Source: Candidatus Margulisiibacteriota bacterium
GTDB lineage: Bacteria > Margulisbacteria > WOR-1 > O2-12-FULL-45-9 > XYB2-FULL-48-7
Reading direction: 5' to 3'
DNA length: 64,000 nt
NCBI GenBank assembly: GCA_041650855.1
Contig: JBAZKJ010000001.1
Location: 551,078 to 615,077, forward strand
Below are positions 3,610-58,265 of the stretch, piece by piece. Below the pieces are notes generated by a model that was not told the DNA's origin, did no database searches, and worked only from the letters and a program-made list of their open reading frames with translations. Numbering within the stretch: position 1 is the first letter of the stretch; each line of letters starts with the position of its first letter. Made by a program: the position numbers and the translations under genes.

Positions 3610-4707
3610 TCAGGGCGCGTATCTAAATATCGTGCCGCCGGCGCCGATCGCCCACCCTTCGGTGCTGGAAAGAAAAAATACGTCGTATAGGTCCGCGGCC
3701 GTCCCGCTCCCCTGAATTTCCCAATCAGCCCCGCTATTCGTCGTATGGAGGACCGTCCCGCCGGTCCCGACCGCCCAACCCTCAAAAGTATTAATAAAGT
3801 TGACCCCGTACAGGTCTGCTGACGTCCTGCTGCTTTGCGGCGACCAGGCGCCGCTGTCCCAATTCATGATGTTCAAGATCGTGCCGCCGTCGCCAACCGC
3901 CCAGCCGATATGCAGCTGGCTGCCGGGGAAACAGACCGCTCGCAATGTCCCGGTCGTGCCGCTCGTTCGCGTGCTCCAGCTGGAGCCGTTGGCCGTTCGG
4001 ATAATGGTCCCGCCCGCTCCGACCGCGACGCCGTAGGCGGTGGTAATACACTGGACCTTTCTCAGGTCATAGCTGGTCCCGCTGCTCTGGGTTGACCAGT
4101 TCGCGCCGCCGTCAGACGTCTGCATGACCAACCCATTGTTGCCGACGACCCACGCCTCAAGCGTGCTGACGAGCGAAGCGCCGTACAGATCTTCGGTCGT
4201 GCCGCTGGTCAGCGGCGCCCAGGTCCACCCGCTGTCCGTGCTCCGCAAGATGAGCCCGTTGTCGCCCGGCAAGAGTTCGATGTTTATGCCCGCAGCCCAG
4301 AAATACTCATAGCCGCGCAGCGTTTCCGGCGTGCCGCTGGCAATGACCGACCAATTGCCGGGAGTAGAGTATGAGCTGGAGATTATTTTCCCGCTTTTAC
4401 CGACCGCCCAGGCCCGGTAATTGCTGCTGCCGGTGCCGTAAGCGAACATTCCCAGCAGGTCCTCGGCCGTGGAGCTGGTTTCCGGCGACCAGACCGTCGT
4501 GGTCGTAGTGCTGGTCGTCGTGGTAGTCGTGGTGGTCGTGGTGCTGGTCGTGGCGATCGTGGTGGTCGAAGTGGCGGGCGCGGAAGTGGTCGTTGTGACC
4601 GGCGCGGCGGTGGTCGTGGTCGTGTCCACTCCGGTCCCGCAACCGGCCAAGCTAACGGCTAACAAGGCAAAGAGTAAAACGGCAAAGGCGACAATTGTTT
4701 TTTTCAT
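3610..4707 (-). CDS. lipoprotein with poly-Thr linker and BNR/Ycf48-like beta-propeller repeats
   Basis: Signal peptide with lipobox LAGC, then a 40-aa Thr/Ser-rich linker. At least 5 repeats of the form GWAVGxGGTIxxTxxGGxxW. Confidence 0.75.
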   Translation of the reverse strand: MKKTIVAFAVLLFALLAVSLAGCGTGVDTTTTTAAPVTTTTSAPATSTTTIATTSTTTTTTTTTTSTTTTTVWSPETSSTAEDLLGMFAYGTGSSNYRAWAVGKSGKIISSSYSTPGNWSVIASGTPETLRGYEYFWAAGINIELLPGDNGLILRSTDSGWTWAPLTSGTTEDLYGASLVSTLEAWVVGNNGLVMQTSDGGANWSTQSSGTSYDLRKVQCITTAYGVAVGAGGTIIRTANGSSWSTRTSGTTGTLRAVCFPGSQLHIGWAVGDGGTILNIMNWDSGAWSPQSSRTSADLYGVNFINTFEGWAVGTGGTVLHTTNSGADWEIQGSGTAADLYDVFFLSSTEGWAIGAGGTIFRYAP

Positions 4708-12740: not shown

Positions 12741-13464
12741 GGTCGCCTTGGTCACCGGCTCGGCCCAGGGGATCGGCAAGGCGATCGCCGTCGCGTTCGC
12801 CAAGGCCGGGGCGAACATCGTCGTTTCCGACATCAATCTGGAGCTGGCGCAGCAAACGGCCAAAGAGATCGCCGCGCTCGGCGTCAAAACGCTGGCGGTC
12901 AAGACCAACGTCGCCGATCCGGCCGACGTGGAAAGAGCGGTCGGCGAGATCGTCGCCGCCCTGGGGCGGATCGACATCCTGGTCAACAACGCCGGGATCA
13001 CCAAGGACAACTTGCTGGTCCGGATGAAGAAAGAGGAGTGGGACGCCGTCCTGGCCGTCAACCTGACCGGCGTCTTTAACTGCACCAAGACAGTTGGCAC
13101 CTTGATGATGAAGCAGCGGTGCGGTAAAATAGTGAATATCGCCTCGATCGTTGGCCAGATGGGGAATTTCGGCCAGGCCAACTACGCGGCGAGCAAGGGC
13201 GGGGTCATCGCCTTTACCAAGACGGTGGCCAAGGAGCTCTCTTCGCGGGGGGTCAATTGCAACGCGATCGCCCCCGGGTTCATCCAAACCGCGATGACGG
13301 ACAAATTGTCCGAGGACGTTAAGAAAAAAATGATGGAGCAGATCCCGCTCGGCAAGCTGGGCACGCCGGAAGACATCGCCAGCGCGGCGCTCTTCCTGTC
13401 GGGCCCGGAGTCCGATTACGTTACCGGTCAGGTCCTGGCCGTTAATGGCGGAATGTACATGTAG
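12721..13464 (+). CDS. fabG: 3-oxoacyl-ACP reductase
   Basis: 247 aa SDR. TGSAQGIGKAIA Rossmann motif, NNAGI and YAASKGG catalytic motifs. Confidence 0.95.
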   Translation: MTNLKDKVALVTGSAQGIGKAIAVAFAKAGANIVVSDINLELAQQTAKEIAALGVKTLAVKTNVADPADVERAVGEIVAALGRIDILVNNAGITKDNLLVRMKKEEWDAVLAVNLTGVFNCTKTVGTLMMKQRCGKIVNIASIVGQMGNFGQANYAASKGGVIAFTKTVAKELSSRGVNCNAIAPGFIQTAMTDKLSEDVKKKMMEQIPLGKLGTPEDIASAALFLSGPESDYVTGQVLAVNGGMYM

Positions 13465-13491
13465 TTTAGAGTTTAGTATTTAGAGTTTAAT
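13464..13491 (+). repeat. tandem heptamer array (G/A)TTTAGA x4 immediately upstream of acpP SD
   Basis: GTTTAGA GTTTAGT ATTTAGA GTTTAAT. AT-rich island in a 62% GC genome. Confidence 0.7.
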
Positions 13492-13507
13492 AAGGAGGAG
13501 GTGGAAC

Positions 13508-13753
13508 ATGGACGAAAATCAGGCTTTTGAAGCAGTTAAAAAGGTGGTCACCGAGCAGCTCGGCGTTTCCGACGCGGAAGTGAAGCGCGAGTCATCTTTC
13601 GTCGACGACCTGGGCGCCGATTCGCTCGACACCGTTGAGCTGGTCATGGCGTTGGAAGAGGCGTTCGGGATGGAAATTCCGGACGAGGACGCCGAGAAGA
13701 TCAAAACGATCGGCGATACCATTAATTACGTGATGCAACACGGAAAGAAGTAA
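13508..13753 (+). CDS. acpP: acyl carrier protein
   Basis: 81 aa. [18 protein letters not shown] phosphopantetheine attachment site. Strong SD AAGGAGGAGG. Confidence 0.95.
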
Positions 13754-31605: not shown

Positions 31606-32676
31606 ATGAACTTCCGTTTGAAATTGCTGCTCGCCATAATTGTTACTTTTATTTTCTTCTTTTTCGCTTCCGACCAGATCGGCAAGAAGCTTATCTTCGG
31701 CAATTTCGATAAACTGGAGCGCGATTACGCGATCAGCGACATGGGCCGGGTCCTCTACTTTATCAACGATTCTTTTACCAGTTACGACGACACCTGCCGG
31801 GACTGGGCTTATTGGGACGATACCTACGCCTTTGTCCGGGATAAGAACGAAAAATACCGCCGGTCCAACCTGACCCCGCAAACCTTTGACAACCTCCGGA
31901 TCCATTTGCTGATGATGTTCGACGAAAAAGGCCGGGTGGTGTACGCTTCCGGTTATAACAATTCGGCCGATACGCTTCAGCCGCTCGGTTCGGCGGCCGA
32001 AAAGGCGCTGATCGCCGGTTTTACTTGCAAAGTGATCAATAAAGGGAGCCAGGGAGTGATCATGATGCCCGAAGGGGCAATGCTGGTCAATGCCCGGCCG
32101 ATCATTCAAAGCAGCCAAACCGGCCCGATCAGGGGGACATTGGTAATGGGCCGTTATTTTGACGCGTTCCGTCTCAGGCGCCTGACCTCGGTGACCCATC
32201 TTTATGCCCAGGCTTATTCGCTCAACCAGGAAAACATCCCTGCCGACGTCAAGGCAGCCCTCCCGGCCCTCGCTTCTTCACCGATCAAGCTGGACAATCA
32301 TAAACAAACGATGGTCGGCTATCTGCTGATGAATGACGTTTTTCGCCGGCCGGCCCTGGTCTTTCGCATCGAAATGCCCCGGACCCTTTATTTCCAATCC
32401 CAGATGTTCTCCAGTTTGTTGTCGATCATTCGCCTATCCGCTTTCTTTTTCACCGGGCTGGTCACCTTGCTGATCCTGCAGCCGCTGGTGATCGCGCCGA
32501 TCGACCGGGTCAATAAAGAATTAAACCAAATAATGGACCACTGTAACCTGATGCAGGGGGCAAAGCTGGCCGCACCGACCGACAAGGACGAGCTGGCTAC
32601 TTTACAAACATCCGTGGATAATATGCTAAAAGAACTGGAGCGGCGCCACCAACCAGACCGCGACCCCGAACCTTAA
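31606..32676 (+). CDS. membrane sensor protein: CHASE4-like periplasmic domain + TM + HAMP, no output domain
   Basis: N-terminal TM, a periplasmic region with the DWAYWDDTYAFV motif (CHASE4 hallmark), a second TM and a HAMP-like segment. The ORF ends 70 aa after TM2. Confidence 0.55.
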   Translation: MNFRLKLLLAIIVTFIFFFFASDQIGKKLIFGNFDKLERDYAISDMGRVLYFINDSFTSYDDTCRDWAYWDDTYAFVRDKNEKYRRSNLTPQTFDNLRIHLLMMFDEKGRVVYASGYNNSADTLQPLGSAAEKALIAGFTCKVINKGSQGVIMMPEGAMLVNARPIIQSSQTGPIRGTLVMGRYFDAFRLRRLTSVTHLYAQAYSLNQENIPADVKAALPALASSPIKLDNHKQTMVGYLLMNDVFRRPALVFRIEMPRTLYFQSQMFSSLLSIIRLSAFFFTGLVTLLILQPLVIAPIDRVNKELNQIMDHCNLMQGAKLAAPTDKDELATLQTSVDNMLKELERRHQPDRDPEP

Positions 32677-33599
32677 GGAAGGGTCGTGAACGACAACTGG
32701 GCCCCCTCGATCTCCCCTCCGCTGTATTGCAGCCGCGCCACGAAATAATAGAGGCTGTTCCTGGTTAAGCCGCTCCGGTTCGTGTTATACGAACCCGAAC
32801 CGTTCCTGATCGCCCAAGCCGTATAGGTCCAGGTCGCTACGCCGGACCGCCGGTATTTGAACTGCACTTGCCCGGTCGCGTACCCCCCGAAATTATAGGT
32901 CATGTTCAGGCGGGCGTTGTTGCGGCCGATGCTGGTAGCTGCCTGGGTCACAACGCTGGGCGGCGCCGGCGGCGTCGTGGTGGTCGTGACCGTGGTGGTG
33001 GTTGTGGTCGTCGTAGTTGGCGCCGCTGTAGTGGTTGTCGATGTCGTAGTCGACGTTGAGGACGTTGTTGTTGACGTGGTCGTTGTGCTGGTCGTAGTCG
33101 ACGTAGAAGTCGTGGTTGTTGTGGTACTGGTAGTCGTTGAAGTCGTGCTGGTCGTGGTCAATGGAGTTGTCGTTGGCGGCGGCATGATGGTCGTGGTGGT
33201 CGGCGCTTCGATCAGCCGGAACAAGCCGGAAAGTTCGACGCGGTACTCATAAGTATTGCCGGTCGGGGTGAATTGCCAGGTGTTCGCGCTCAACTTCTGC
33301 CAATCCCTCTTGACCGGCTCCTGCAGGACCACGCCAAAAAAAGGGTTGGTGTTGGTGGCATAGGACCCGGCCTCGGCCGAATCCAGCTCGGGGGGGAAGT
33401 TCCTGGTCCCGCCCTGCTGCGGGTCGAGGAAGTAGATCATGACCCCGGTCTTGATCGCCTCGGCCGTCGATTTTTCCACCGATTCCTGGGCGACCGGCTC
33501 AAAATTGCGGTATACGGAAAAAGCGATCGCCACGATGATGCTCAGGATCACCATCACCATGATCGTGCTTATTAAAGTGAAGCCCCCTTTTGTTCTCAT
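32673..33599 (-). CDS. type IV pilin-like (prepilin N-terminus) protein with poly-Thr linker and C-terminal Fn3/Ig-like domain
   Basis: MRTKGGFTLISTIMVMVILSIIVAI resembles a class III signal/N-methylation region, but position +5 is Ser rather than Glu. An 80-aa T/S/P linker and a C-terminal beta-sandwich. Alternative GTG start at 33629. Confidence 0.55.
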   Translation of the reverse strand: MRTKGGFTLISTIMVMVILSIIVAIAFSVYRNFEPVAQESVEKSTAEAIKTGVMIYFLDPQQGGTRNFPPELDSAEAGSYATNTNPFFGVVLQEPVKRDWQKLSANTWQFTPTGNTYEYRVELSGLFRLIEAPTTTTIMPPPTTTPLTTTSTTSTTTSTTTTTTSTSTTTSTTTTSTTTSSTSTTTSTTTTAAPTTTTTTTTTVTTTTTPPAPPSVVTQAATSIGRNNARLNMTYNFGGYATGQVQFKYRRSGVATWTYTAWAIRNGSGSYNTNRSGLTRNSLYYFVARLQYSGGEIEGAQLSFTTLP

Positions 33600-33666
33600 G
33601 GCAAACCGGCAGCCCTTCCACCTGCTCACCGTGTGGCTATTATAGCAGATATCCCGGTTTTACAAC

Positions 33667-33697
33667 TTGACAATCCCCCCCGGTTTTAGGGTATAAT
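33667..33697 (+). promoter_or_regulatory. consensus sigma70 promoter TTGACA-19-TATAAT for tuf
   Basis: Perfect -35 and -10 hexamers. A 50-nt leader with SD AGGAGGT. Confidence 0.6.
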
Positions 33698-33747
33698 ACA
33701 ACGTTGCCTAAAAAATAGGTCACGAATCACTTTAGGAGGTATGTATC

Positions 33748-34952: not shown

Positions 34953-36281
34953 TTGAGGACGCTGATCAAAGTATTCGGGGTCGTGGCGGCAGCCTCGCTG
35001 CTCGTCACGGCCGGCCTGATCGGCTTTGATTTCTTCCAGGTCCAGGAGAAATTCCCCGCGCAGACCTATATCGGCGCGGTCAACGTCTCCGGGCTCGACC
35101 AGCCGCAAGCCCTCGACAAGATCCGCTCCCTGAACCCTTCCCAGGTCTTCGCGCCGGCCGTTTCCTTTGAGGCGGAAAAAGAAAGTTTCTCTTATTCCCC
35201 CGAAGAGCTCGGCGTCACCGTCAACTACGAAGAGAGCATAAAACAGGCCTTTAAAATGACCCACCAGGATGGCTATATCCGGGAGCTGAAGGAGCGCCTG
35301 ACCGAGGGGATGATCCACTGCCCTGTTGTCCTGTCGCTGAACGAGAACAAATTGCGCGATGCGCTGGAAACCCTGGCCAACAAGATCCGCTCCGATTCCC
35401 AGGACGCTTCGATCATCCTTTACGAAGAGACCGGCGGCTACCATATCGAACCGGAGGAAATGGGGCGCGAGGTCAATATCGATGACACCGTCAAAGAGTT
35501 CAAGGCCGCCCTGGCGGCCGAAAAAAAGACCTTCCCGGTCGTCATTGAGTACGAGGAGCCGTACATCACGGAAAAGGAGCTCCGCGCCGCGCCGCCGGCT
35601 CACCGCCTCTCCGCCTTCACCACCTATTACGGCAAACACGATTCGCCTAACCGAATCCACAACATCCGGCTGGTCGCCTCCTGGATCAACAACACCATCC
35701 TGATGCCGGGCGAGGTTTTTTCGGTCGGGGACATCCTGGGCGACATCACGCCGGAACGCGGGTTCAAGGAAGCTTTCGTGATCATGAAGGGGGAACTGGT
35801 CCCGCAGCTGGGCGGCGGCTCCTGCCAGATCGCAACAACCCTGTACAACACCATCCAGCTGGCCGACGTCAAGGTCGTCCAGCGGCGGAGCCATTCGATG
35901 TATTTTAATATCTACCCGCTCGGCCGCGACGCCGGCGTGTTCCCCCCGTCGCTCGATTTCAAGTTCGAGAACGACACCGGCCACCCGCTCCTGATCAAGG
36001 CGCTTGCCACCAACCGGCGGCTCTCTTTCCGGCTCTACGGGACGCCGACCGGCAAGACGGTCAAGTTCACCTACCCGCGCGTTCATATGCTGACCGAATC
36101 CGGGTACGTCCCGGCCACGGTCCGGGCGGTGCTGGCCGCCGACGCGCCGTTCAAGACCGAAGTGACCCGCACGGTCTTCGACAAAGAAGGCAAAGAGCTG
36201 AAGAGCGAAAAGATCCTCAGCTTCTACAAGCTTTATGGAGAAAAAGAAAATGTGCCGATTGCCAGGCCTGAACCAAGATAA
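34953..36281 (+). CDS. VanW-family protein
   Basis: N-terminal TM anchor, a PG-binding-like region, and a VanW domain (YYGKHDSPNRIHNIRLVASWINNTILMPGEVFS). TTG start 11 nt after the tuf stop. Confidence 0.8.
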   Translation: MRTLIKVFGVVAAASLLVTAGLIGFDFFQVQEKFPAQTYIGAVNVSGLDQPQALDKIRSLNPSQVFAPAVSFEAEKESFSYSPEELGVTVNYEESIKQAFKMTHQDGYIRELKERLTEGMIHCPVVLSLNENKLRDALETLANKIRSDSQDASIILYEETGGYHIEPEEMGREVNIDDTVKEFKAALAAEKKTFPVVIEYEEPYITEKELRAAPPAHRLSAFTTYYGKHDSPNRIHNIRLVASWINNTILMPGEVFSVGDILGDITPERGFKEAFVIMKGELVPQLGGGSCQIATTLYNTIQLADVKVVQRRSHSMYFNIYPLGRDAGVFPPSLDFKFENDTGHPLLIKALATNRRLSFRLYGTPTGKTVKFTYPRVHMLTESGYVPATVRAVLAADAPFKTEVTRTVFDKEGKELKSEKILSFYKLYGEKENVPIARPEPR

Positions 36282-36287
36282 CCAAAA

Positions 36288-36317
36288 CTCGAAATACTAA
36301 ACTCTAAATTCTAAACA
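36288..36317 (+). repeat. tandem heptamer array TCTAAAC-like x4 (reverse orientation) immediately upstream of lpxC ATG
   Basis: CTCGAAA TACTAAA CTCTAAA TTCTAAA C. Its reverse complement matches the acpP array at 24/25 positions (TTTAGAGTTTAGTATTTnGAGTTT). Confidence 0.7.
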
Positions 36318-36325
36318 AATCCGAA

Positions 36326-37114
36326 ATGCGAAACCCGAAATTCCAAACAACGATCAAAAAGGCTTTTACCCTGGAGGGGATCGGGCTGCATAGCGGGGCA
36401 AAGGTCTCCGCGACGGTCGCGCCAGCTGAAGCAGGCGCCGGGGTAACGTTCAACGGGACCCGAGCAATCCTGTCTAACGTAACCGCGACAAAACGGGCAA
36501 CTACAATTGGCAACGTGGCCATGGTCGAGCATCTTCTTTCGGCCGCCGCCGGCCTTGGCATCGACAACCTTGCCGTTATTGTTCAGGGGCCGGAAATTCC
36601 TGTTCTAGATGGGAGTGCTTTGCCTTGGGTTGAGGCCTTGGAAAAGGCGGGAATTCTCCCCCTCTCCTCACTACTTACCCCTCTCATCATTCAACAACCT
36701 ATCCGCCTAACCACCCAGGATGCCTCCCTGGAAGCCTTCCCTTACGATGGCTTCGAGGTCGAATTTATGGTAGACTTTAAAGGGGTTGGAGAGCAGAAAT
36801 TCGCTTATAACGCTGAAAAAATGAGCTATAAGGCGGAGATCGCCCCGGCCCGGACATTTGGCTATCTTGAAGAGATCGACGCGCTAAAAGCGCAGGGCTT
36901 GGGTCTGGGGGCATCTTACGACAACGCTCTGGTCTTAAATAACAGCGGCTACGTCAACGAACCCCGGTTCCCCGATGAGCCGGCCCGCCACAAGATACTG
37001 GACCTGATCGGCGACCTGGCGCTGCTGGGAAGACCGCTTAAGGCCCGGCTCAAGGCCAGCCGCTCCGGCCACAAGTTGAACGCGGAATTAGTAAGGAGGA
37101 TATTACAGCCATGA
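36326..37114 (+). CDS. lpxC: UDP-3-O-acyl-N-acetylglucosamine deacetylase
   Basis: 262 aa. [23 protein letters not shown] and [10 protein letters not shown] motifs. No SD. Preceded by an AT-rich heptamer array. Confidence 0.9.
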
Positions 37115-38394
37115 ACGAAGTGAACATCGATATCAAGGAGATCATGAAAACGATCCCCCATCGTTACCCCTTCCTGCTGATCGACCGGGTGATCGAACTG
37201 GAAGAAGGAAAACGGGCCGTCGCCATCAAGAACGTGACGATGAACGAGCCGCAATTCACCGGCCATTTCCCCGGCATCCCGATCATGCCCGGCGTTCTTA
37301 TTATTGAAGCGCTCGCCCAGGTCGGCTGCGTCATGGCGCTCCGGCAGCCTTCGGCCGAAGGGAAGATCGTCCTTTTTGCCGGGATCGACGGCGTCCGCTT
37401 CCGGCGGCAGGTCATTCCCGGCGACCAGCTCCGGCTGGAGGTAGAAACTGTCTGGGTGCGCGGCCCGCTCGGCAAAATGAAGGGGAAGGCGACCGTTAAC
37501 GGCGAAGTCGCCGCTGAGGGCGAATTCACCTTCTCGCTCGCAGACCCGGCCGCCGGCAGCGCCAAGGTCCACCCAACCGCAACCGTCCACAAGAACGCCG
37601 TGCTGGGCAAGAACGTCGAGATCGGCCCCGACACCGTGATCGGCGCCGACGTCAAGATCGGCGACGGCACGAAAGTCGGCGCCCATTGCCTCATTACCGG
37701 CTGGACGACGATCGGCAAGGAGAACGCCATCCACAACGGGACGGCGATCGGCCTGCCGCCCCAGGACGTTAAATACAAAGGGGAAAAAGGCGAGATCATC
37801 ATCGGCGACAAGAACATCATCCGCGAGTTTGTCACGATCCACATCCCTTCCGCCGGCGGGGAGACGCGTATCGGCAACGAATGCTTCATCATGGTCCACG
37901 CCCACGTGCCGCACAACTGCCGGATCGGCAACCAGGTGATCCTCGGCGGGTACGTCGGTTTGGCCGGCTACACGGAGATCGGCGACCAGGTCATCATCGG
38001 CGGGCTGGCGGGGGTCCACCAGTTCTGCCGGATCGGCCGGCTGACGATGGTCGGCGCCCAGTCCAAGGTCACCCAGGATATCGCCCCGTTCATGCTGGTG
38101 GAAGGGAACCCGGCGCAGGTCCGCGGGATCAACAGCATCGGCATCCAGCGGCGCGGCATCAGCCAGGAATCCCATTCGGAGATCAAGAAAGCGTTCAAGC
38201 TCCTCTACGAATCGGGCCACACTACCGCCGAAGCCGCCAAAGAGATCAAGAAACGGCTCCGGCCGCTCCCCGAGATCGAGCAGATCGTCGCTTTCCTCGA
38301 ACAGGAAAGCCACCGCGGGATCAGCAAGAAGACCGCCCTGGAAGAAGAGGCGGAAGAGCTGCTTCTCCCCGACATCCCCGAACTCGGCATATGA
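37111..38394 (+). CDS. bifunctional 3-hydroxyacyl-ACP dehydratase FabZ / UDP-GlcNAc acyltransferase LpxA fusion
   Basis: Residues 1-150 form a FabZ hot-dog fold ([25 protein letters not shown]). Residues 160-427 carry LpxA hexapeptide repeats and a C-terminal helical domain. Confidence 0.9.
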
Positions 38395-52420: not shown

Positions 52421-53644
52421 TTATTCGGCAAGGCTCATTGATTGATAACTCAAACCGGCCGCGTTCAAGCCCCAGCTAAAAGCCGTGACCGAAGCGGGAT
52501 TATTCGATTGATAGAAGTAGCCCCTGCCGCCCTTAAAATCAAGGACCGGCGGAGAAAGCGTCCAGGTGATCGCTGCTCCCGAGACAACCGCCTTTGCCTT
52601 ATCGTATGTCGGATTAGCCGCTGACGTTTTCTTGAAGACCGTGTCGTTGTTAGACGCGAAGTTAAATAAATTTGCCCCTTCGCCGTCCGGGATCGCCCTG
52701 GGAACCGCCATGGAAACGATCGCGAAGCCGCCATTCCCATAGATCCTCGAGGAACCCACCAACTGGACGCTGCCGAGCAGTGTTAACATCTTCGATGCGC
52801 TGGTCTTGACAAAACATCCTGTTCCGGCCGGGATGGTGAGCGAGAACGGATCGCTCCAGGCGGAACCGTTGTATATCGCTTTGTCGTAAGTCGGATTGCC
52901 GGAGGTCTTTTTAAAGATCATGTCTTGGTCCGACCAGTTCGCGATAAAATCGCTGACCAGATGACCTTCGCCTTTTACTAAATGGACGCCCACCAAATTG
53001 AAGCCGCTGGAAAGCTGGATATTGATCTTGCCGACCGCTTCCGCGCTCGGTATGTAGTAGCTGTATTGTGTCGACGGGATCGTCGACCAAAGAGCCTTAT
53101 AATAAACTTCACCCGTCCCCATTTTCACCTGGTTTTGGTGAACTAATTTATTATCCGCATAGGTGAATGTTCCATATCCATCCGGCGTTGGAGAGACCAA
53201 CGCGCCGCCGGAGGCGATCAGCTTCCATTTGGCCGCCGAATAGTCGTTTAAATATTCACCGGCGCCGTTGCCTATTAACGCGAAGATCTGCGGGTTATCT
53301 GTCGTTTCCCAAGTTATTTCGACGTTATTGCCGTTGGCGGATATGTATAATTTATAAGTCCCATCCGCGGCAATTCCCTGGTCGTCCAGCAAGCCCAGGA
53401 TCCCGGGAGTGATCCGGATCAGGCCGGTATCGTTCTGGAAATTAGCGCCTGCCGGCTCGCCGAATGTCTGGTAAAGCTTGATCGTCGCGTTCGCTTCTTT
53501 GGTCCCGCCGCCGTTGGCCGTGTCATACAGCGTGATCTGGGGGTCCGCGTTTATCAGCTTATCCGCGTACACCACGCCGCCGATGGCCAACACCATGGCC
53601 GCGACCAGCGAGATCCTAATTACTAAATTCGAAACTCTAAACAA
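52421..53644 (-). CDS. secreted surface-operon protein with internal duplicated FKKTS..PTYDKA module
   Basis: TTG start with SD AAGGGGAG. Signal peptide. Two repeats of the form D..(I/V)FKKTS(G/A)NPTYDKA. C-terminal GRGYFYQ. Confidence 0.75.
   Translation of the reverse strand: MFRVSNLVIRISLVAAMVLAIGGVVYADKLINADPQITLYDTANGGGTKEANATIKLYQTFGEPAGANFQNDTGLIRITPGILGLLDDQGIAADGTYKLYISANGNNVEITWETTDNPQIFALIGNGAGEYLNDYSAAKWKLIASGGALVSPTPDGYGTFTYADNKLVHQNQVKMGTGEVYYKALWSTIPSTQYSYYIPSAEAVGKINIQLSSGFNLVGVHLVKGEGHLVSDFIANWSDQDMIFKKTSGNPTYDKAIYNGSAWSDPFSLTIPAGTGCFVKTSASKMLTLLGSVQLVGSSRIYGNGGFAIVSMAVPRAIPDGEGANLFNFASNNDTVFKKTSAANPTYDKAKAVVSGAAITWTLSPPVLDFKGGRGYFYQSNNPASVTAFSWGLNAAGLSYQSMSLAE
53615..53642 (+). 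repeat. tandem heptamer array (CCTAATT ACTAAAT TCGAAAC TCTAAAC) overlapping the TTG start of surface-operon gene 52421-53644
   Basis: Reads GTTTAGAGTTTCGAATTTAGT in gene orientation and encodes F-R-V-S-N-L. Confidence 0.5.
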
Positions 53645-53656
53645 ATGCTTCTCCCC

Positions 53657-56335
53657 TTACTTCGCCGACTTGTCCTCCAGCGCTTTGATCCGCGCCTTCA
53701 GCGCTTCGTTCTCCGCTTTCAATTCCTTGATCGCTTCGACAAAGAGGGCGCTAAAGCCATTGTAGTTGACCGCTTTATAGCCGTCCGGCCCTTCGCTGAC
53801 CAACTCCGGCGCCACCTTCTCAATCTCCTGAGCGATCAACCCGAGCTGGGTCGTCCCCGGCAATCCTTTGGCCCCCGCATCCTTCCACTTATAGCTTACG
53901 CCTTGCAGTGCAGCAACCCTATTAAGCGAGCCGGAGAGCGGCGCTATGTCACTCTTAAGCCGCATATCTGAGAAGACAATGCCAACTGTTGAGTAACTAT
54001 ACTTACCGATCGACGTACCGTAAGTTATTTCGTCAGCTGTTAGTAACGGCGCTTTCATCCGACCAGTATTGTTATTAATCTGATAAGCGGCCTTCCAACC
54101 ACTCGAGCCCCTTACCCCCAACGCCGTTGTTGCCGGATAGTTCACCGTGGCAGGGAAATGCGCGAAAAGCGCCGAGTAGGTTGTGCCTGCCGTGTTATCA
54201 GCGATCCAGATCCCCGGAGCTTGCCCGCCGTTCGTCTCCGGCAAAAGAACAAGGTTTTTCTTGGTCCCGACCGCAAGGTCGTTGATATATTGCGTCTTGA
54301 AAACGTTGTTGGTAAGCCTAGCGTCGGCGATTGTGCCGGTCGTGATATTGGCCGCGTTAAGGCTGGTCAGGTTCGCTCCGCTGATAGCCGGAAGCGCCCC
54401 GGTTAACTTCGACGCGGTAATGCCGCTAGCGATCTTCGCATCGGTAACCGCGCTGGCCGCTATATCGGCCGTGGCAATGGTGTTCCTTTGCGCGATCGTT
54501 CCCAATCCAGCCGAAGCTTGCAGTTTGGTGAATGTCAGGTCGAAGTCTGACGCCACTTTGTGCCACGAACCGCCTACCACGTTCTGGTAGAGACCGGCAC
54601 CGTAGCTGCCTGATGGTGCGGTCAGATTAAAGAATGAACCGAGTGAGTAGTTCCCGGTGTAGCCCGTGCCTGCTGACGGTAAGGCCGTCCCGCTGGGCGC
54701 GACTTGCGAGAACGACAGCAATCCCGATACTTTTGACGCCGGCACGGCGGAGACGTTGCTTAAGTCGGTCTTCGCGTAACCGTCCAGAGCAACCGTGGTC
54801 AGGAAGTCGCCGCTCAAGTTTTGGACCTTGCTCATGTTCGTTGCCAATTTTTGCAGGCTTGATCCCGCCTTCAGCCGGTAAGTTGTGGTAACGCCGCTTT
54901 TGCTCGTATAGGTCCAATCCGACGCCGCGTTGCCGCTCATCCCCATCACGTGTTCTGCCAGCGCAACCCGGTCCTCAACGTCCGACCCTACCGGGTCGCC
55001 AGGGTCGGTTACCGGGCCTGCCGGATCGATCTTCTCAACCGATTGCATAAATTCCGGCAACTCAATTTTGAAGCTCCCTTTGGTGACCCAAATCTTGACA
55101 TCCCCTTCAGCGCTGGAGCTGACTTGGTCGACCACTCTGACCGGGACATTAACAACCGTGGCCCCCGTCGACGGGACCATGGTCGTGAAAACGATCTGGC
55201 CGGTCGTTGGGCCAAATATAACGTCCGAAACCGCTACCGTGATCGGGGGTAAAGGTAAATAACCACCGTCGGGCACGTGATACGCCGTTACAGTTCCCCG
55301 AAGATTCCAGAGGTAGTCGGGGACCCCTCCGCTGGCCTGCATCGTTACAGAAAAATCAGCTATCCCGGCCGAGGCTTTCATGACGTTTATAATCTTGTGT
55401 AAAGTGACCGGCTGCTTTTTAACCATGATGTTTCTTTCTTCGACAGCAACCTGGTTATAAAAATCTTTCATCCTAACCGTCAATTTTCTCCAGCCTTCTG
55501 TGGCGGTAAGCGCTACAGAGCCATTTAGCTGCGCCCTTTGCGTTGCCGTGGGGCCGGTACTAACCGTCAACGCCGACGGATTGATCCCCGTAACAGCCGG
55601 CTCGATTGAAACCGTCCAGGTAAAGGTCGGTGTCCCGGCGCCGGCTTTTCGTTCAAATACGCCTGACCAAGGTTTTCCAATATAGAAATAATCAGCGGGG
55701 TCGGTACTAATGGTAAACGCCGGAGAAGAAGTTACTCCCGTTATCGCTCCCTGGACGTTCATGTTCCCCCGGACCAGCAAGTCGCCGTTAATGTCACATT
55801 CGTAACCCGTTGTCACTTCCGGGGTCATGACGCCGACGCCGACGTTCGTGACCCGCAGCTTACTAAGGTCGCTGTAGCCCTGGATATCCAGGCCGTTGCC
55901 GGCGCCAACGCCGGTGCCGCCGGTCCTGATCCTGGCGACGTCATTCCACCAACCCAGGCTGACGCTCGCATTGTCGTTGTTGGGATTTCTGCTGATCACA
56001 TGTCCCGCTGTTATCGCGTAGGGAGCAGCAGTTAATGCCTGGCCCGGTAAAGCAGTGCCGTTCACTTCGACGGTAACTACGGCGTATTCGGGGAGCAATA
56101 ACGCGGTCTTTGACCCCAACTGGACGCTGAAAAAACCTTTTTCATCGATGTTAAGTTCGGTCGCGGTGTAGCTTTCCGACCAGCTGTTGATCCTGAACAC
56201 GACGGTTTGGCTGCCGGTCGGCGCCCCTTTCTTGAAGACCCCCTGGAAGTTTATTTTTTGCGGGACCGCCCAGCCCGGACTCGCCACCACCAGCGCCACA
56301 AAAAGGACCACGACCGCCATCATTAATTTTTTCAT
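53657..56335 (-). CDS. tail-fibre-like trimeric surface protein with C-terminal peptidase-S74 intramolecular chaperone domain
   Basis: 892 aa with signal peptide. Repetitive beta-helix/fibre-like middle. C-terminal 104 aa SDMRLKSDIAPLSG ... VSYKWKD ... GLIAQEIEKVAPELV ... IKELKAENEALKARIKALE matches the endosialidase chaperone domain. Confidence 0.85.
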   Translation of the reverse strand: MKKLMMAVVVLFVALVVASPGWAVPQKINFQGVFKKGAPTGSQTVVFRINSWSESYTATELNIDEKGFFSVQLGSKTALLLPEYAVVTVEVNGTALPGQALTAAPYAITAGHVISRNPNNDNASVSLGWWNDVARIRTGGTGVGAGNGLDIQGYSDLSKLRVTNVGVGVMTPEVTTGYECDINGDLLVRGNMNVQGAITGVTSSPAFTISTDPADYFYIGKPWSGVFERKAGAGTPTFTWTVSIEPAVTGINPSALTVSTGPTATQRAQLNGSVALTATEGWRKLTVRMKDFYNQVAVEERNIMVKKQPVTLHKIINVMKASAGIADFSVTMQASGGVPDYLWNLRGTVTAYHVPDGGYLPLPPITVAVSDVIFGPTTGQIVFTTMVPSTGATVVNVPVRVVDQVSSSAEGDVKIWVTKGSFKIELPEFMQSVEKIDPAGPVTDPGDPVGSDVEDRVALAEHVMGMSGNAASDWTYTSKSGVTTTYRLKAGSSLQKLATNMSKVQNLSGDFLTTVALDGYAKTDLSNVSAVPASKVSGLLSFSQVAPSGTALPSAGTGYTGNYSLGSFFNLTAPSGSYGAGLYQNVVGGSWHKVASDFDLTFTKLQASAGLGTIAQRNTIATADIAASAVTDAKIASGITASKLTGALPAISGANLTSLNAANITTGTIADARLTNNVFKTQYINDLAVGTKKNLVLLPETNGGQAPGIWIADNTAGTTYSALFAHFPATVNYPATTALGVRGSSGWKAAYQINNNTGRMKAPLLTADEITYGTSIGKYSYSTVGIVFSDMRLKSDIAPLSGSLNRVAALQGVSYKWKDAGAKGLPGTTQLGLIAQEIEKVAPELVSEGPDGYKAVNYNGFSALFVEAIKELKAENEALKARIKALEDKSAK

Positions 56336-56360: not shown

Positions 56361-58265
56361 TTAGTATGTGTCCCAGTTCAAGAGGTCTTTCTTCAAGACC
56401 TGCTGCACGTAATCGGTGCGATAGAGCATCTCCACCGTTTCCGCTCTGGTCAATTGCTTGTTCGGCTCAAAGTTCAGCCCTTTCAGATACTGCAAGATAT
56501 TAACTTTATTGCTCCCGGCGATGATCTTGGCCGCCCAGTGGTTGCCGGCGACGTCCGGGAAGTCGCGGGCGTAGGTCTCTTCGCTGACGCCGGCAAAGCG
56601 GGCGATCATTGCCAGCCCTTCGGCGCGGGTGATCTTGCCGTTCGGTTTAAAGACGTTGCCGGGGTAGCCCTTGACGACGCCGAGCGCCGCCGCTTCCGCG
56701 ACGAACGCGCTGGCCCAGTGCTTCCCGGGGACGTCCTTGAACGCCGCCGCCGTTAACGCCGCCTCTGCCGTCGACGCGTTCTGTTTCCTGGTCTTCATCA
56801 GTAGTGAGCACATTTCGGCGCGGGAAATGCCGCCCTCCGGCTTGAACGTGCCGTCGGGATAACCGGTGATGATGTTCTGCATCGCCAGGAGCGAGATCGG
56901 CTTGTCAACCCAGTAGCCGATGACAACGTCCGGGAAGGTCGTTAAGCGGAGCAGGCGGACCTTGGACGAGCCGACCAGCTTGCCCCGGTCGTCGCTGCCG
57001 GCCAGGATGATGCCGTTCTTGCCGATCTTCAGTTCCACCTCGGTCGAGATGTCCCCCTTCAGGTTCATCTTGACCGGCTGGCCGTTGATCGTGGCGGTGC
57101 GGATCCGGCTGTTCGCCGCGTGCGCGTGGACCCGCGTCGCGCCGGCAAACGTGATCGTCTTGTCATCGGGCGAAGTAAAGGTGAATGGGTCCTTGCTGCT
57201 CTCAACGGCCGGCGGCAGGTAGTTGTAAGAGAGCGAGAAGAAATGGTTGTCGATATTCGGCGCGCCGGCGAAAGCGTGGTAGGCGTAGTCGAACCGGAAC
57301 CCGCCGAAATACATGCCGACGCCGTAAGTCGGATCGGAATAAGTCGTCAGGCCGCCGTTGCCGTCGCCGCCGGCATCCTGGTCGATACCGGCCCGGATCG
57401 CCAGGATCGAGACCGGCTTCCATTCCGCGCCCAAATGCATGACCGGCGGATACCCGGCCAGCGAAGGATGGAGGTCGATGTCGGTCATGATCTTGAGCTC
57501 GTGGTCCCCGTATTTCGCCAGCGCTTTATCTTTGCCGAGCACGGAAAAGGCGGCGCCGGTCTCGATCACCGCCGGGTACGATTCTTCGTGGCCGCCGGAG
57601 TATGTCAGTTTGCCGCCCAGGCCGGCGGGGAGAGCGTTTTGCACCGCCATACCGAGCGCTAGCCAGCGCAGCGGCGTGTATTTGATGCCGAAGTCGAGCT
57701 CCTGGCCGGAGGCGTCGCCGTTCTGGATCCCGTCGCCGTAGAGGCGCGCCCGGAATAATTTAACACTGGTGCCGAGCGTGATCTTGTCCGCTTGCGGGAC
57801 CTGTTTGACGTAAGGGATCTTGTCCGCTTTGTTGCCGTAAGAGAAGACCATGGCGGCGTTGTCGTTCCCCATGGTCGGCTGGCTCGGGTCGATCGTGTAG
57901 ATCGGATCGGCCGGGTCGGACCCCGCTTCGATCGTGGTGGCGAACGCCCCGGCGATCGAGGTCCCGGCGTAACCAAAACCGAAAACGCCGTACTCGGTCG
58001 GATATAAGCCGGAAAAAGAGAGATAGCTGTATTCGTCGAGGAATTTACCGGACATAGAAGACAATTGCCACCCGGAAACGTCGCCCATGCCGGCCGGGTT
58101 GGTGTACATCGCGCCGGTATCGTCGGCCAGGGCGATATACGCTTTACCAAGCCCCAGGACGCGGCCGTTCGGTACGTATCTCGTCGGGTCTTGCGCGACA
58201 TACTGGGCGCAGGCAACGCCCGCCAGTAAAACGGCGGCCACTATGGCGGTTAATATTCGTTTCAT
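56361..58265 (-). CDS. outer-membrane FadL/OmpP1/PorV-like beta-barrel with three C-terminal SLH domains
   Basis: Signal peptide. N-terminus LGLGKAYIALADDTGAMYTNPAGM matches the FadL signature ([25 protein letters not shown]). Three C-terminal SLH repeats (GYPDGTFKPEGGISRAE, GYPGNVFKPNGKITRAE, ... NKQLTRAE). Confidence 0.8.
   Translation of the reverse strand: MKRILTAIVAAVLLAGVACAQYVAQDPTRYVPNGRVLGLGKAYIALADDTGAMYTNPAGMGDVSGWQLSSMSGKFLDEYSYLSFSGLYPTEYGVFGFGYAGTSIAGAFATTIEAGSDPADPIYTIDPSQPTMGNDNAAMVFSYGNKADKIPYVKQVPQADKITLGTSVKLFRARLYGDGIQNGDASGQELDFGIKYTPLRWLALGMAVQNALPAGLGGKLTYSGGHEESYPAVIETGAAFSVLGKDKALAKYGDHELKIMTDIDLHPSLAGYPPVMHLGAEWKPVSILAIRAGIDQDAGGDGNGGLTTYSDPTYGVGMYFGGFRFDYAYHAFAGAPNIDNHFFSLSYNYLPPAVESSKDPFTFTSPDDKTITFAGATRVHAHAANSRIRTATINGQPVKMNLKGDISTEVELKIGKNGIILAGSDDRGKLVGSSKVRLLRLTTFPDVVIGYWVDKPISLLAMQNIITGYPDGTFKPEGGISRAEMCSLLMKTRKQNASTAEAALTAAAFKDVPGKHWASAFVAEAAALGVVKGYPGNVFKPNGKITRAEGLAMIARFAGVSEETYARDFPDVAGNHWAAKIIAGSNKVNILQYLKGLNFEPNKQLTRAETVEMLYRTDYVQQVLKKDLLNWDTY

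Follow-up and report, generated by a model that had tools for sequence, protein, structure and literature searches.

We analysed a 64,000-nt stretch of DNA from a Candidatus Margulisiibacteriota bacterium (assembly GCA_041650855.1, contig JBAZKJ010000001.1, positions 551,078 to 615,077), which is called the window in the following. It carries three tandem arrays of the heptamer TTTAGRR at the starts of acpP (site A), of lpxC (site B) and of a gene at a surface-protein locus (site C). We consider it probable that each of these arrays represents one arm of an intergenic repeat family with dispersed copies, and that they have been co-opted in this genome as translation-initiation regions.

Three heptamer arrays in the window

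The analysis of this genome covered the 64-kb window. A scan for at least three phased TTTNNNN units found three TTTAGRR arrays and no others, each of them lying between co-directional genes, and Tandem Repeats Finder detected periods of 7 and 14 nt. The orientation differs among the three copies, with site A on the plus strand and sites B and C on the minus strand. An earlier description made from the letters of this DNA (the sequence-only reading) had reported three arrays at gene starts, and they are indeed present there, site B being longer than described. It had also considered the 10-mer TTTAGAGTTT to be far more frequent than expected by chance, which was borne out by our counts: 4 occurrences were found versus 0.05 expected, and none of 100 shuffled sequences reached 4. 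The near-identity that it had noted between the acpP array and the reverse complement of the lpxC array holds as well, with 23 of 24 nt shared and not 24 of 25. Chance or AT-rich low complexity as the source of the arrays is ruled out by the frequency of the 10-mer together with the specific profile matches described below.

Architecture and distribution of the element

The repeat family was defined by loci L007-L126, which were obtained in an exact-pattern scan with TTTAGAGTTTMGWATTTMG that used one genome per species and yielded at least 120 loci. The matches listed come from Omnitrophota, Patescibacteria, Planctomycetota, Dehalococcoidia, Bacteroidota, Saganbacteria, Cyanobacteria, Bacillota, Nitrospirota, WOR-3, Kryptoniota, Elusimicrobia, Desulfobacterota, Gammaproteobacteria and others, and in nearly every one of them the heptamer phase runs past the 19 matched bases. 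As read from these loci and from 92 arms anchored on the junction, the full element is an imperfect palindrome of heptamers with a length of about 130-140 nt. It begins with an A-rich arm (A-arm), composed of an outer module (NNCTAAA)x4, the junction CAAA and an inner module (NNCNAAA)x3-4. After the centre follows a T-rich arm (T-arm) of the form (TTTNGNN)x3-4, TTTG, (TTTAGRR)x4. This architecture, including the junction, is kept in metagenome-assembled genomes (MAGs) of Omnitrophota, Patescibacteria, Planctomycetota, Dehalococcoidia, Saganbacteria, WOR-3, Kryptoniota, Desulfobacterota, Gammaproteobacteria and Bacteroidota, and altogether the element is spread over at least ten bacterial phyla and viral contigs.

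In 89 of 129 arms (69%) the outer module consists of precisely four units, and this fixed number argues against a free-running microsatellite. A second, microsatellite-like mode of the same heptamer was seen in Bacteroidota MAGs (L035:3242-3556, L096:104-229, L073:438-571), where long simple arrays of up to 44 and 18 copies have neither the TTTG junction nor the fixed four-unit module. Simple arrays of the TTTAGRR unit are also present in cultured Bacteroidota and Bacillota; Mucilaginibacter dorajii JCM 16601 and Flavobacterium palustre CGMCC 1.12811 are among the cultured strains with TTTAGRR arrays.

Among the matches listed, about 230 arrays were counted, and 220 of 230 are intergenic. Between co-directional genes 74 arrays are in T sense versus 75 in A sense, while 25 lie between convergent and 23 between divergent genes. 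Single arms (131) and paired arms (99) both occur in this set; the single arms are split 40:41 between the two senses, and where neighbouring arrays lie on opposite strands the A-rich arm is followed by the T-rich arm at a ratio of 58:5. The element usually occupies the entire spacer and touches the stop and start codons of its neighbours. For ten arms the next gene downstream was identified, and these genes are functionally unrelated (RuvC, Pth, ArgH, ScpA, the prepilin peptidase PilD, E2 acyltransferase, PlsY, SucD, TrxB and HtrA). The sequence-only reading had suggested a regulator or an RNA element that links the expression of acyl carrier protein (ACP), LpxC and surface proteins, a suggestion not supported by an element that stands beside unrelated genes in many phyla and is balanced in orientation.

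The junction-specific pattern was also found in 21 viral contigs, some of them with 3-4 copies. Three IMG/VR contigs (L224, L232, L237) carry 2-4 single arms each, which within a contig all point the same way relative to the genes and are near-identical including their flanks.

The window copies match a profile of the family

An arm profile hidden Markov model was built from 93 arms of other phyla, with no window sequence among them, and searched with nhmmer. In the window it gave exactly three matches, to sites B, C and A, and none other at E<10. Site B was matched with E=2.9e-11 over profile positions 7-70 of 71, which corresponds to a complete arm in A sense, site C with E=2.2e-7 over positions 34-69 (junction and outer module), and site A with E=9e-4 over positions 40-65 (outer module only). 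The features at the three sites are the following:

13465..13492, plus strand: outer T-arm module of site A, TTTAGAG TTTAGTA TTTAGAG TTTAATA, between the fabG stop codon and the Shine-Dalgarno sequence (SD) of acpP
13493..13510, plus strand: acpP SD (AGGAGGAGGTGG, about 13493-13504) and ATG (13508-13510), directly 3' of array A; invariant in L001-L003
36281..36287, minus strand: degenerate fifth unit of site B, TTTTGGT, touching the vanW stop codon
36288..36315, minus strand: outer module of site B, TTTAGAA TTTAGAG TTTAGTA TTTCGAG (in gene sense NNCTAAA x4)
36316..36319, minus strand: TTTG junction of site B (in gene sense CAAA), a phase-shifting 4-nt spacer that is kept across phyla
36320..36347, minus strand: inner module of site B, TTTGGAA TTTCGGG TTTCGCA TTTCGGA; it holds the lpxC ATG (36326-36328) and codons 1-7 (MRNPKFQ)
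53613..53648, minus strand: site C, CATTTG junction and four outer units, TTTAGAG TTTCGAA TTTAGTA ATTAGGA

Each site has four outer units, the last of which is TTTAATA at site A and ATTAGGA at site C, and site B has the additional degenerate unit. Both the TTTG junction and the inner module are present at site B, only the junction at site C, and neither at site A, because there the fabG stop codon sits at the junction position. No mirror arm was found within about 150 nt of sites A, B and C, all of which are single arms. They lie close against the neighbouring genes: site A starts at the base after the fabG stop codon (13462-13464), site B touches the vanW stop codon (36279-36281), and site C lies 12 nt past the upstream stop codon.

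No sigma-70 promoter or intrinsic terminator was matched at sites A, B and C. A sigma-70 promoter within the arms was also rejected for the family, since the spacings of TTGNNN-TANNNT in the 93 arms are 12-13, 19-20 or 26 nt and almost never 16-18 nt.

The lpxC copy

Site B spans positions 36281-36347 on the minus strand (TTTGGAA TTTCGGG TTTCGCA TTTCGGA TTTG TTTAGAA TTTAGAG TTTAGTA TTTCGAG TTTTGG) and extends from the last base of the vanW stop codon to lpxC codon 8. The lpxC ATG (36326) is inside the array, and upstream of it there is no GGAG-like SD. The sequence-only reading had correctly described the start as lacking an SD, but had placed the array directly before the ATG and not around it.

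The gene block around site B, tuf-vanW-lpxC-fabZ/lpxA-lpxB, is conserved among relatives, and the spacer between vanW and lpxC differs. In L133 (LpxC 68% identical) and L136/137 (57%) vanW and lpxC overlap by 32 nt, so there is no spacer and the lpxC ATG lies within vanW. In the window and in L128 (LpxC 74% identical), about 61 nt of arm are located between the vanW stop codon and the conserved LpxC sequence QTTIKK; the start codon ATG and the residues MRNPKF come from the arm. In L131 (LpxC 69% identical) the vanW-lpxC spacer holds a degenerate, CA-rich version (NNTCAAA). As judged from these alignments, a complete A-arm was inserted between the vanW stop codon and the conserved LpxC N-terminus, and the indel is present, absent or eroding between relatives. 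The sequence CCAAA flanks the insertion in lpxC, but it also belongs to the unit pattern. An exact look-up of EF-Tu for the lpxC locus of a close relative returned only the source contig, k141_902998 of ERZ27247363. LpxC of the window is 100% identical to P0001.

The arm at site B is identical to that of L128 at 62 of 66 positions (94%), compared to 83% for vanW, 76% for the rest of lpxC and 59-67% for third codon positions (binomial 3e-8). Since the flanking genes are clearly less conserved than the arm, this comparison indicates that the lpxC arm is under purifying selection, and it supports the functional importance at the lpxC start that had been suggested earlier. All four differences between the two arms are at variable positions of the family (p about 0.03).

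The overlap in L133, L136 and L137 (6001-6032, vanW/lpxC junction) puts the lpxC ATG 32 nt inside the 3' end of vanW, an arrangement that we observed in many Margulisbacteria and Saganbacteria. LpxC N-termini such as MSPSPAPN... and MSRSPA... result when the conserved VanW C-terminus ENVPIARPEPR is read in the +1 frame, and the start of lpxC inside vanW accounts for the odd MSPSPAPN... N-termini of many homologues. It also implies that the vanW-domain gene and lpxC would be translationally coupled in those relatives. Downstream of lpxC, with a 4-nt overlap, a single open reading frame of 427 aa (37111-38394, plus strand) fuses FabZ (FabA/FabZ dehydratase domain) to LpxA (hexapeptide and Acetyltransf_11), and this fusion is kept in all relatives fetched. 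Upstream of tuf, at about 33667-33700, a promoter-like pair TTGACA ... TATAAT and the tuf leader are conserved with L128, and the rest of that spacer is not alignable, which gives a baseline for a conserved regulatory spacer in this genome pair.

The acpP copy

Site A places a C-free, T-rich sense sequence in the acpP leader and ends at the acpP SD. Identical arrays are present in L001, L003 and L005, which are independent assemblies of the same lineage. In L002 (94.5% identical over 6.2 kb) there is no array between fabG and acpP, and the spacer is 17 nt shorter. Among about 30 relatives the fabG-acpP spacer is hypervariable: it contains 0, 1, 2, 4 or 5 units or the full element, and the units are imperfect. 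L142 carries a full palindromic element with profile matches on both strands, L146 five inner-type units, L144 and L151 two units, and L138 only a junction remnant. The filled spacer of L142 and the empty spacer of L002 have common flanks (TAGTCA / TTT..) without clear duplication. Based on this hypervariability, site A looks like an eroding remnant under little constraint, consisting of the last four units of the T-arm that is complete in L142. Conservation in related genomes, when checked, was found for the lpxC arm and not for the acpP copy.

In other lineages the fabG-acpP spacer contains palindromes of different heptamers (GTAACGR, ATTAGNN, TTTTAAG, CATCTGA) or the SD alone. The palindromes are at L145:2242-2330, L150:989-1090, L153:2233-2340 and L169:1801-1890, with the heptamers GTAACGR, AATGNNG/ATTAGNN, TTTTAAG and CATCTGA. 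Inverted heptamer arrays look like a general architecture in this clade, beyond the TTTAGRR version.

The arrays could also be local products of replication slippage, with heptameric simple sequence repeats (SSRs) arising separately at each site and not by common descent. Of the long SSRs in bacteria, heptamers are the most over-represented class (Mrazek 2007, as cited in PMC4679880 and PMC4692102). The number of units at fabG-acpP differs among relatives, and other heptamer palindromes occupy the same spacer in other lineages. However, the number of units per module is constant at four, phyla share the TTTG junction as well as the division into inner and outer modules, the profile matches are significant, and imperfect units disfavour such an origin. 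Slippage is therefore largely refuted by the shared composite architecture, and we regard it as quite unlikely. A phase-variable SSR was rejected as well, as the units differ from one another and the arrays are identical in the three independent assemblies.

Operators of a dedicated regulator, or an RNA signal, could co-regulate acpP, lpxC and the surface-protein operon. Such a model would fit the motif common to three gene starts and the lpxC copy kept in L128. Ribbon-helix-helix repressors, for example omega of pSM19035, bind contiguous heptads. On the other hand, the family occurs beside unrelated genes in at least ten phyla, the three arrays of the window do not share one orientation, close relatives have an eroded array before acpP or none, and the arrays are without promoter-like sites, which makes a dedicated regulator highly improbable. 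Of the functional repeated element at translation starts that had been proposed from the sequence, a non-random element with a constrained lpxC copy is retained, and the dedicated regulator is not.

The copy at the surface-protein locus

Site C follows 12 nt after the stop codon of a gene for an 892-aa surface protein with a Peptidase_S74 domain, and the next gene encodes an orphan 407-aa protein. The TTTG junction includes the TTG at 53644-53642, a candidate start codon that is preceded by GGGGAGAAG (53656-53648). The recorded gene call uses the ATG at 53596. An overlap of the third array with a TTG start, as proposed by the sequence-only reading, agrees with the position of the TTG in the junction and disagrees with that gene call. 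With translation from the TTG, the units would be read as FRVSNLVIR and form the n-region of a canonical signal peptide (MFRVSNLVIRISLVAAMVLAIGGVVYA) like those of the neighbours. Unit 2 of site C is TTTCGAA, which removes an in-frame TAG, and only two of three frames are stopped. The upstream GGGGAGAAG, the canonical signal peptide and the missing in-frame TAG all favour the TTG, which is the likely candidate for the start of this gene. No homologues of the 407-aa protein were found; exact look-ups returned the source contig only.

The 892-aa secreted protein (53657-56335, minus strand) ends in Peptidase_S74, the intramolecular chaperone of tail fibres. An SLH-domain protein is encoded upstream (56361-58265, minus strand), and orphan secreted proteins are encoded downstream. 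The Peptidase_S74 and SLH locus is a phage-tail-fibre-like module in a cell-surface operon. Elsewhere in the window, 9/18-nt tandem repeats at 4495-4624 and 32973-33125 code for poly-threonine/serine linkers in a lipoprotein-like protein (3610-4707, minus strand) and a pilin-like protein (32673-33629, minus strand), respectively.

Composition, folding and pairing of the arms

The T strand of the outer modules contains 3% C, and the A sense is G-poor. Because an arm is a nearly three-letter sequence, RNA of a single arm should be unable to fold on itself in either sense. For the lpxC leader a folding energy of −1.4 kcal/mol over 81 nt was calculated. Full elements form long imperfect hairpins in these predictions (−37 to −43 kcal/mol, z −6 to −8). 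At variable positions the identity between the two arms of an element is 0.45, versus 0.52 between unrelated elements, showing no covariation, and the sense RNA has 29 G.U-compatible versus 38 A.C combinations, which is no excess of wobble pairs. Pairing potential therefore derives solely from the conserved TTTAG/CTAAA core, and a hairpin kept by compensatory change is ruled out by these values.

Identity of outer modules is 0.73 within loci versus 0.74 between loci. Recent transposition bursts are ruled out, since the outer modules are equally alike in both comparisons. The inner modules are locus-specific (0.51 versus 0.415, reached in 0 of 500 permutations). All six frames contain a stop codon in 57% of the outer modules, compared to 2% of random 31-mers with matching composition. 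At this percentage, stops in six frames are a frequent consequence of the sequence and not a rule, and the idea of an invariant design was rejected.

In an alternative model, the arms would be arrays of sites for a general conserved nucleic-acid-binding protein with a footprint of about 7 nt, and the family would be a true global cis-regulatory module. On RNA, the candidate binders are ribosomal protein S1 or a protein with a cold-shock domain, a single one of which covers 6-7 nt of T-rich single strand. Rho is a candidate for the A-arm, which is poor in G and has YC dinucleotides at regular spacing, and on DNA the 7-bp repeats could be wrapped by a DNA-binding protein. The model is consistent with a heptamer pattern that is equally kept within and between phyla while R/Y positions drift, with the pattern-specific constraint on the lpxC arm, and with the lack of covariation and of wobble excess, by which the arms appear as independent arrays and not as pairing partners. 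S1, Csp or CsrA were proposed for the analogous TAACTGA repeats (MacGregor 2015, PMC4679880). However, a role in RNA binding should depend on orientation, and the single arms show no such dependence; in addition, the acpP copy decays freely in relatives. We consider this model unlikely.

The opposite orientation of sites A and B also allows pairing in trans between two mRNAs, in which the U-rich acpP leader would bind the A-rich lpxC leader and couple ACP supply to lipid A synthesis. The two leaders are complementary at 23 of 24 positions, the calculated duplex energy is −41.3 kcal/mol versus −22.3 ± 3.9 kcal/mol for shuffled partners, and pairing would involve the sequence immediately 5' of each start. 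However, any two copies in opposite orientation are complementary, and the third copy pairs equally (−43.3 kcal/mol). The acpP copy is missing in L002 and has two units in the genome carrying L131 and L151, and sites A and B are not significantly more similar at variable positions than expected from the family background (estimate, p about 0.08). The complementarity of the leaders exists because two copies of the family lie in opposite orientation, and a regulatory pairing between them is extremely unlikely.

Discussion

The analysis supports the view that sites A, B and C are single arms of a repeat family that acquired a role in translation initiation. An arm would land on, or persist at, a gene boundary and then uncouple the downstream gene from the upstream gene, and the landed arm may be co-opted as the translation-initiation region of the downstream gene. 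In lpxC the arm would supply the SD-less AUG, in the surface gene at site C the TTG and the n-region of the signal peptide, and in acpP an A/U-rich leader just 5' of the SD. The full-length element may act as an intercistronic hairpin or as an array of 7-nt sites for a general nucleic-acid-binding protein.

Several observations weigh against this view. The strong hairpins of the full elements fit oddly with a role as unstructured leader. The primary sequence is kept across phyla (0.73 versus 0.74), which is hard to reconcile with selfish spread or neutrality alone; such equal conservation argues for a specific and widely conserved partner. The constraint on the lpxC arm centres on the heptamer pattern, beyond what a merely unstructured leader would need (p about 0.03). 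No target-site duplication or transposase was identified, a transposase not having been searched for. The protein at site C is an orphan and its TTG start is a candidate only, and the evidence from this genome comprises 64 kb. A bolder interpretation takes up some of these points: a palindromic heptamer element of about 140 nt, present in at least ten phyla and some phages, would serve as a general module of intercistronic control and be kept by a universal partner (cold-shock-domain protein, S1, Rho, RNase III or a DNA-wrapping protein), and one arm would have become an indispensable, purifying-selected translation start of lpxC. We consider this conceivable, yet rather doubtful.

In a comparison with Rfam 15 at the gathering score, neither the window nor 18 loci with many full elements gave matches other than tRNAs, and string searches of the literature found no paper containing the TTTAGRR repeat. 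Among the closest documented systems are the intergenic TAACTGA direct repeats found in marine Beggiatoaceae, in Cyanobacteria and in some Bacteroidetes (MacGregor 2015, PMC4679880). Like the arrays described here, these consist of tandem 7-nt units, typically in 2-6 copies, are intergenic and often just upstream of start codons, carry stop codons and show a patchy spread across phyla. They differ in the unit, which is TTTAGRR/TTTNGNN in our family, and they are simple direct repeats (one indirect repeat was reported), mostly in one orientation over the ribosome-binding site. In contrast, an arm of the TTTAGRR family consists of two modules joined by a 4-nt junction, with four units fixed in the outer one; the full form is a palindrome, and neither orientation is preferred.

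Other heptamer repeats are the STRR of heterocystous cyanobacteria (Mazel 1990, as cited in PMC4692102) and the GGGAATC/GGGGAYT SSRs of Xanthomonas and Nostoc (Rehm 2015, PMC4692102). Both form intergenic heptamer arrays that are sometimes inverted and vary in length and sequence between close relatives; Margulisbacteria are a sister group of Cyanobacteria. Unlike the AT-rich TTTAGRR arms of defined length in many phyla, those repeats are G-rich or lineage-restricted, with 2-26 units.

REP/BIME, ERIC and Correia-type repeats or miniature inverted-repeat transposable elements are imperfect palindromes of about 100-150 nt that are specific for a genus or family, have a cognate transposase (RAYT, or an insertion sequence in trans) and often show target-site duplication. 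Similar to the TTTAGRR element, they fill spacers in many copies, are polymorphic in presence and absence, are co-transcribed with their flanks and are occasionally co-opted for expression signals; the TTTAGRR arms differ in being heptamer-periodic and in a sequence that is kept across phyla. A/U-rich, S1-dependent translational enhancers and unstructured SD-less leaders are also known, for example the leader of phage T7 gene 10 (TTTGTTTAACTTTAAGAAGGAG). Site A resembles such enhancers in placing UUUAGAGUUUAAUA directly 5' of a strong SD, and site B resembles SD-less leaders in giving lpxC a G-free, unstructured leader without SD. However, those enhancers and leaders are neither heptamer-periodic nor palindromic, and they do not form dispersed repeat families. 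Compared with the documented heptamer repeats, the family is new in its broad distribution, in the palindrome of its full form and in an architecture fixed at two modules.

Intergenic heptamer repeats (STRR, long SSRs, TAACTGA, GGGAATC) have been known for 35 years without a mechanism. The TTTAGRR family is tractable in this respect, as it has a fixed architecture, a specific profile, hundreds of copies over many phyla and an lpxC copy under clear purifying selection. For annotation it matters that arms create start codons and N-termini, as predicted for lpxC and the signal-peptide gene, which are handled inconsistently by gene callers. A motif common to gene starts is no proof of a regulon when this motif is a dispersed repeat. 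If the copies do have a common binding partner, the family would represent a level of intercistronic control that is widespread among lineages most of which are uncultivated.

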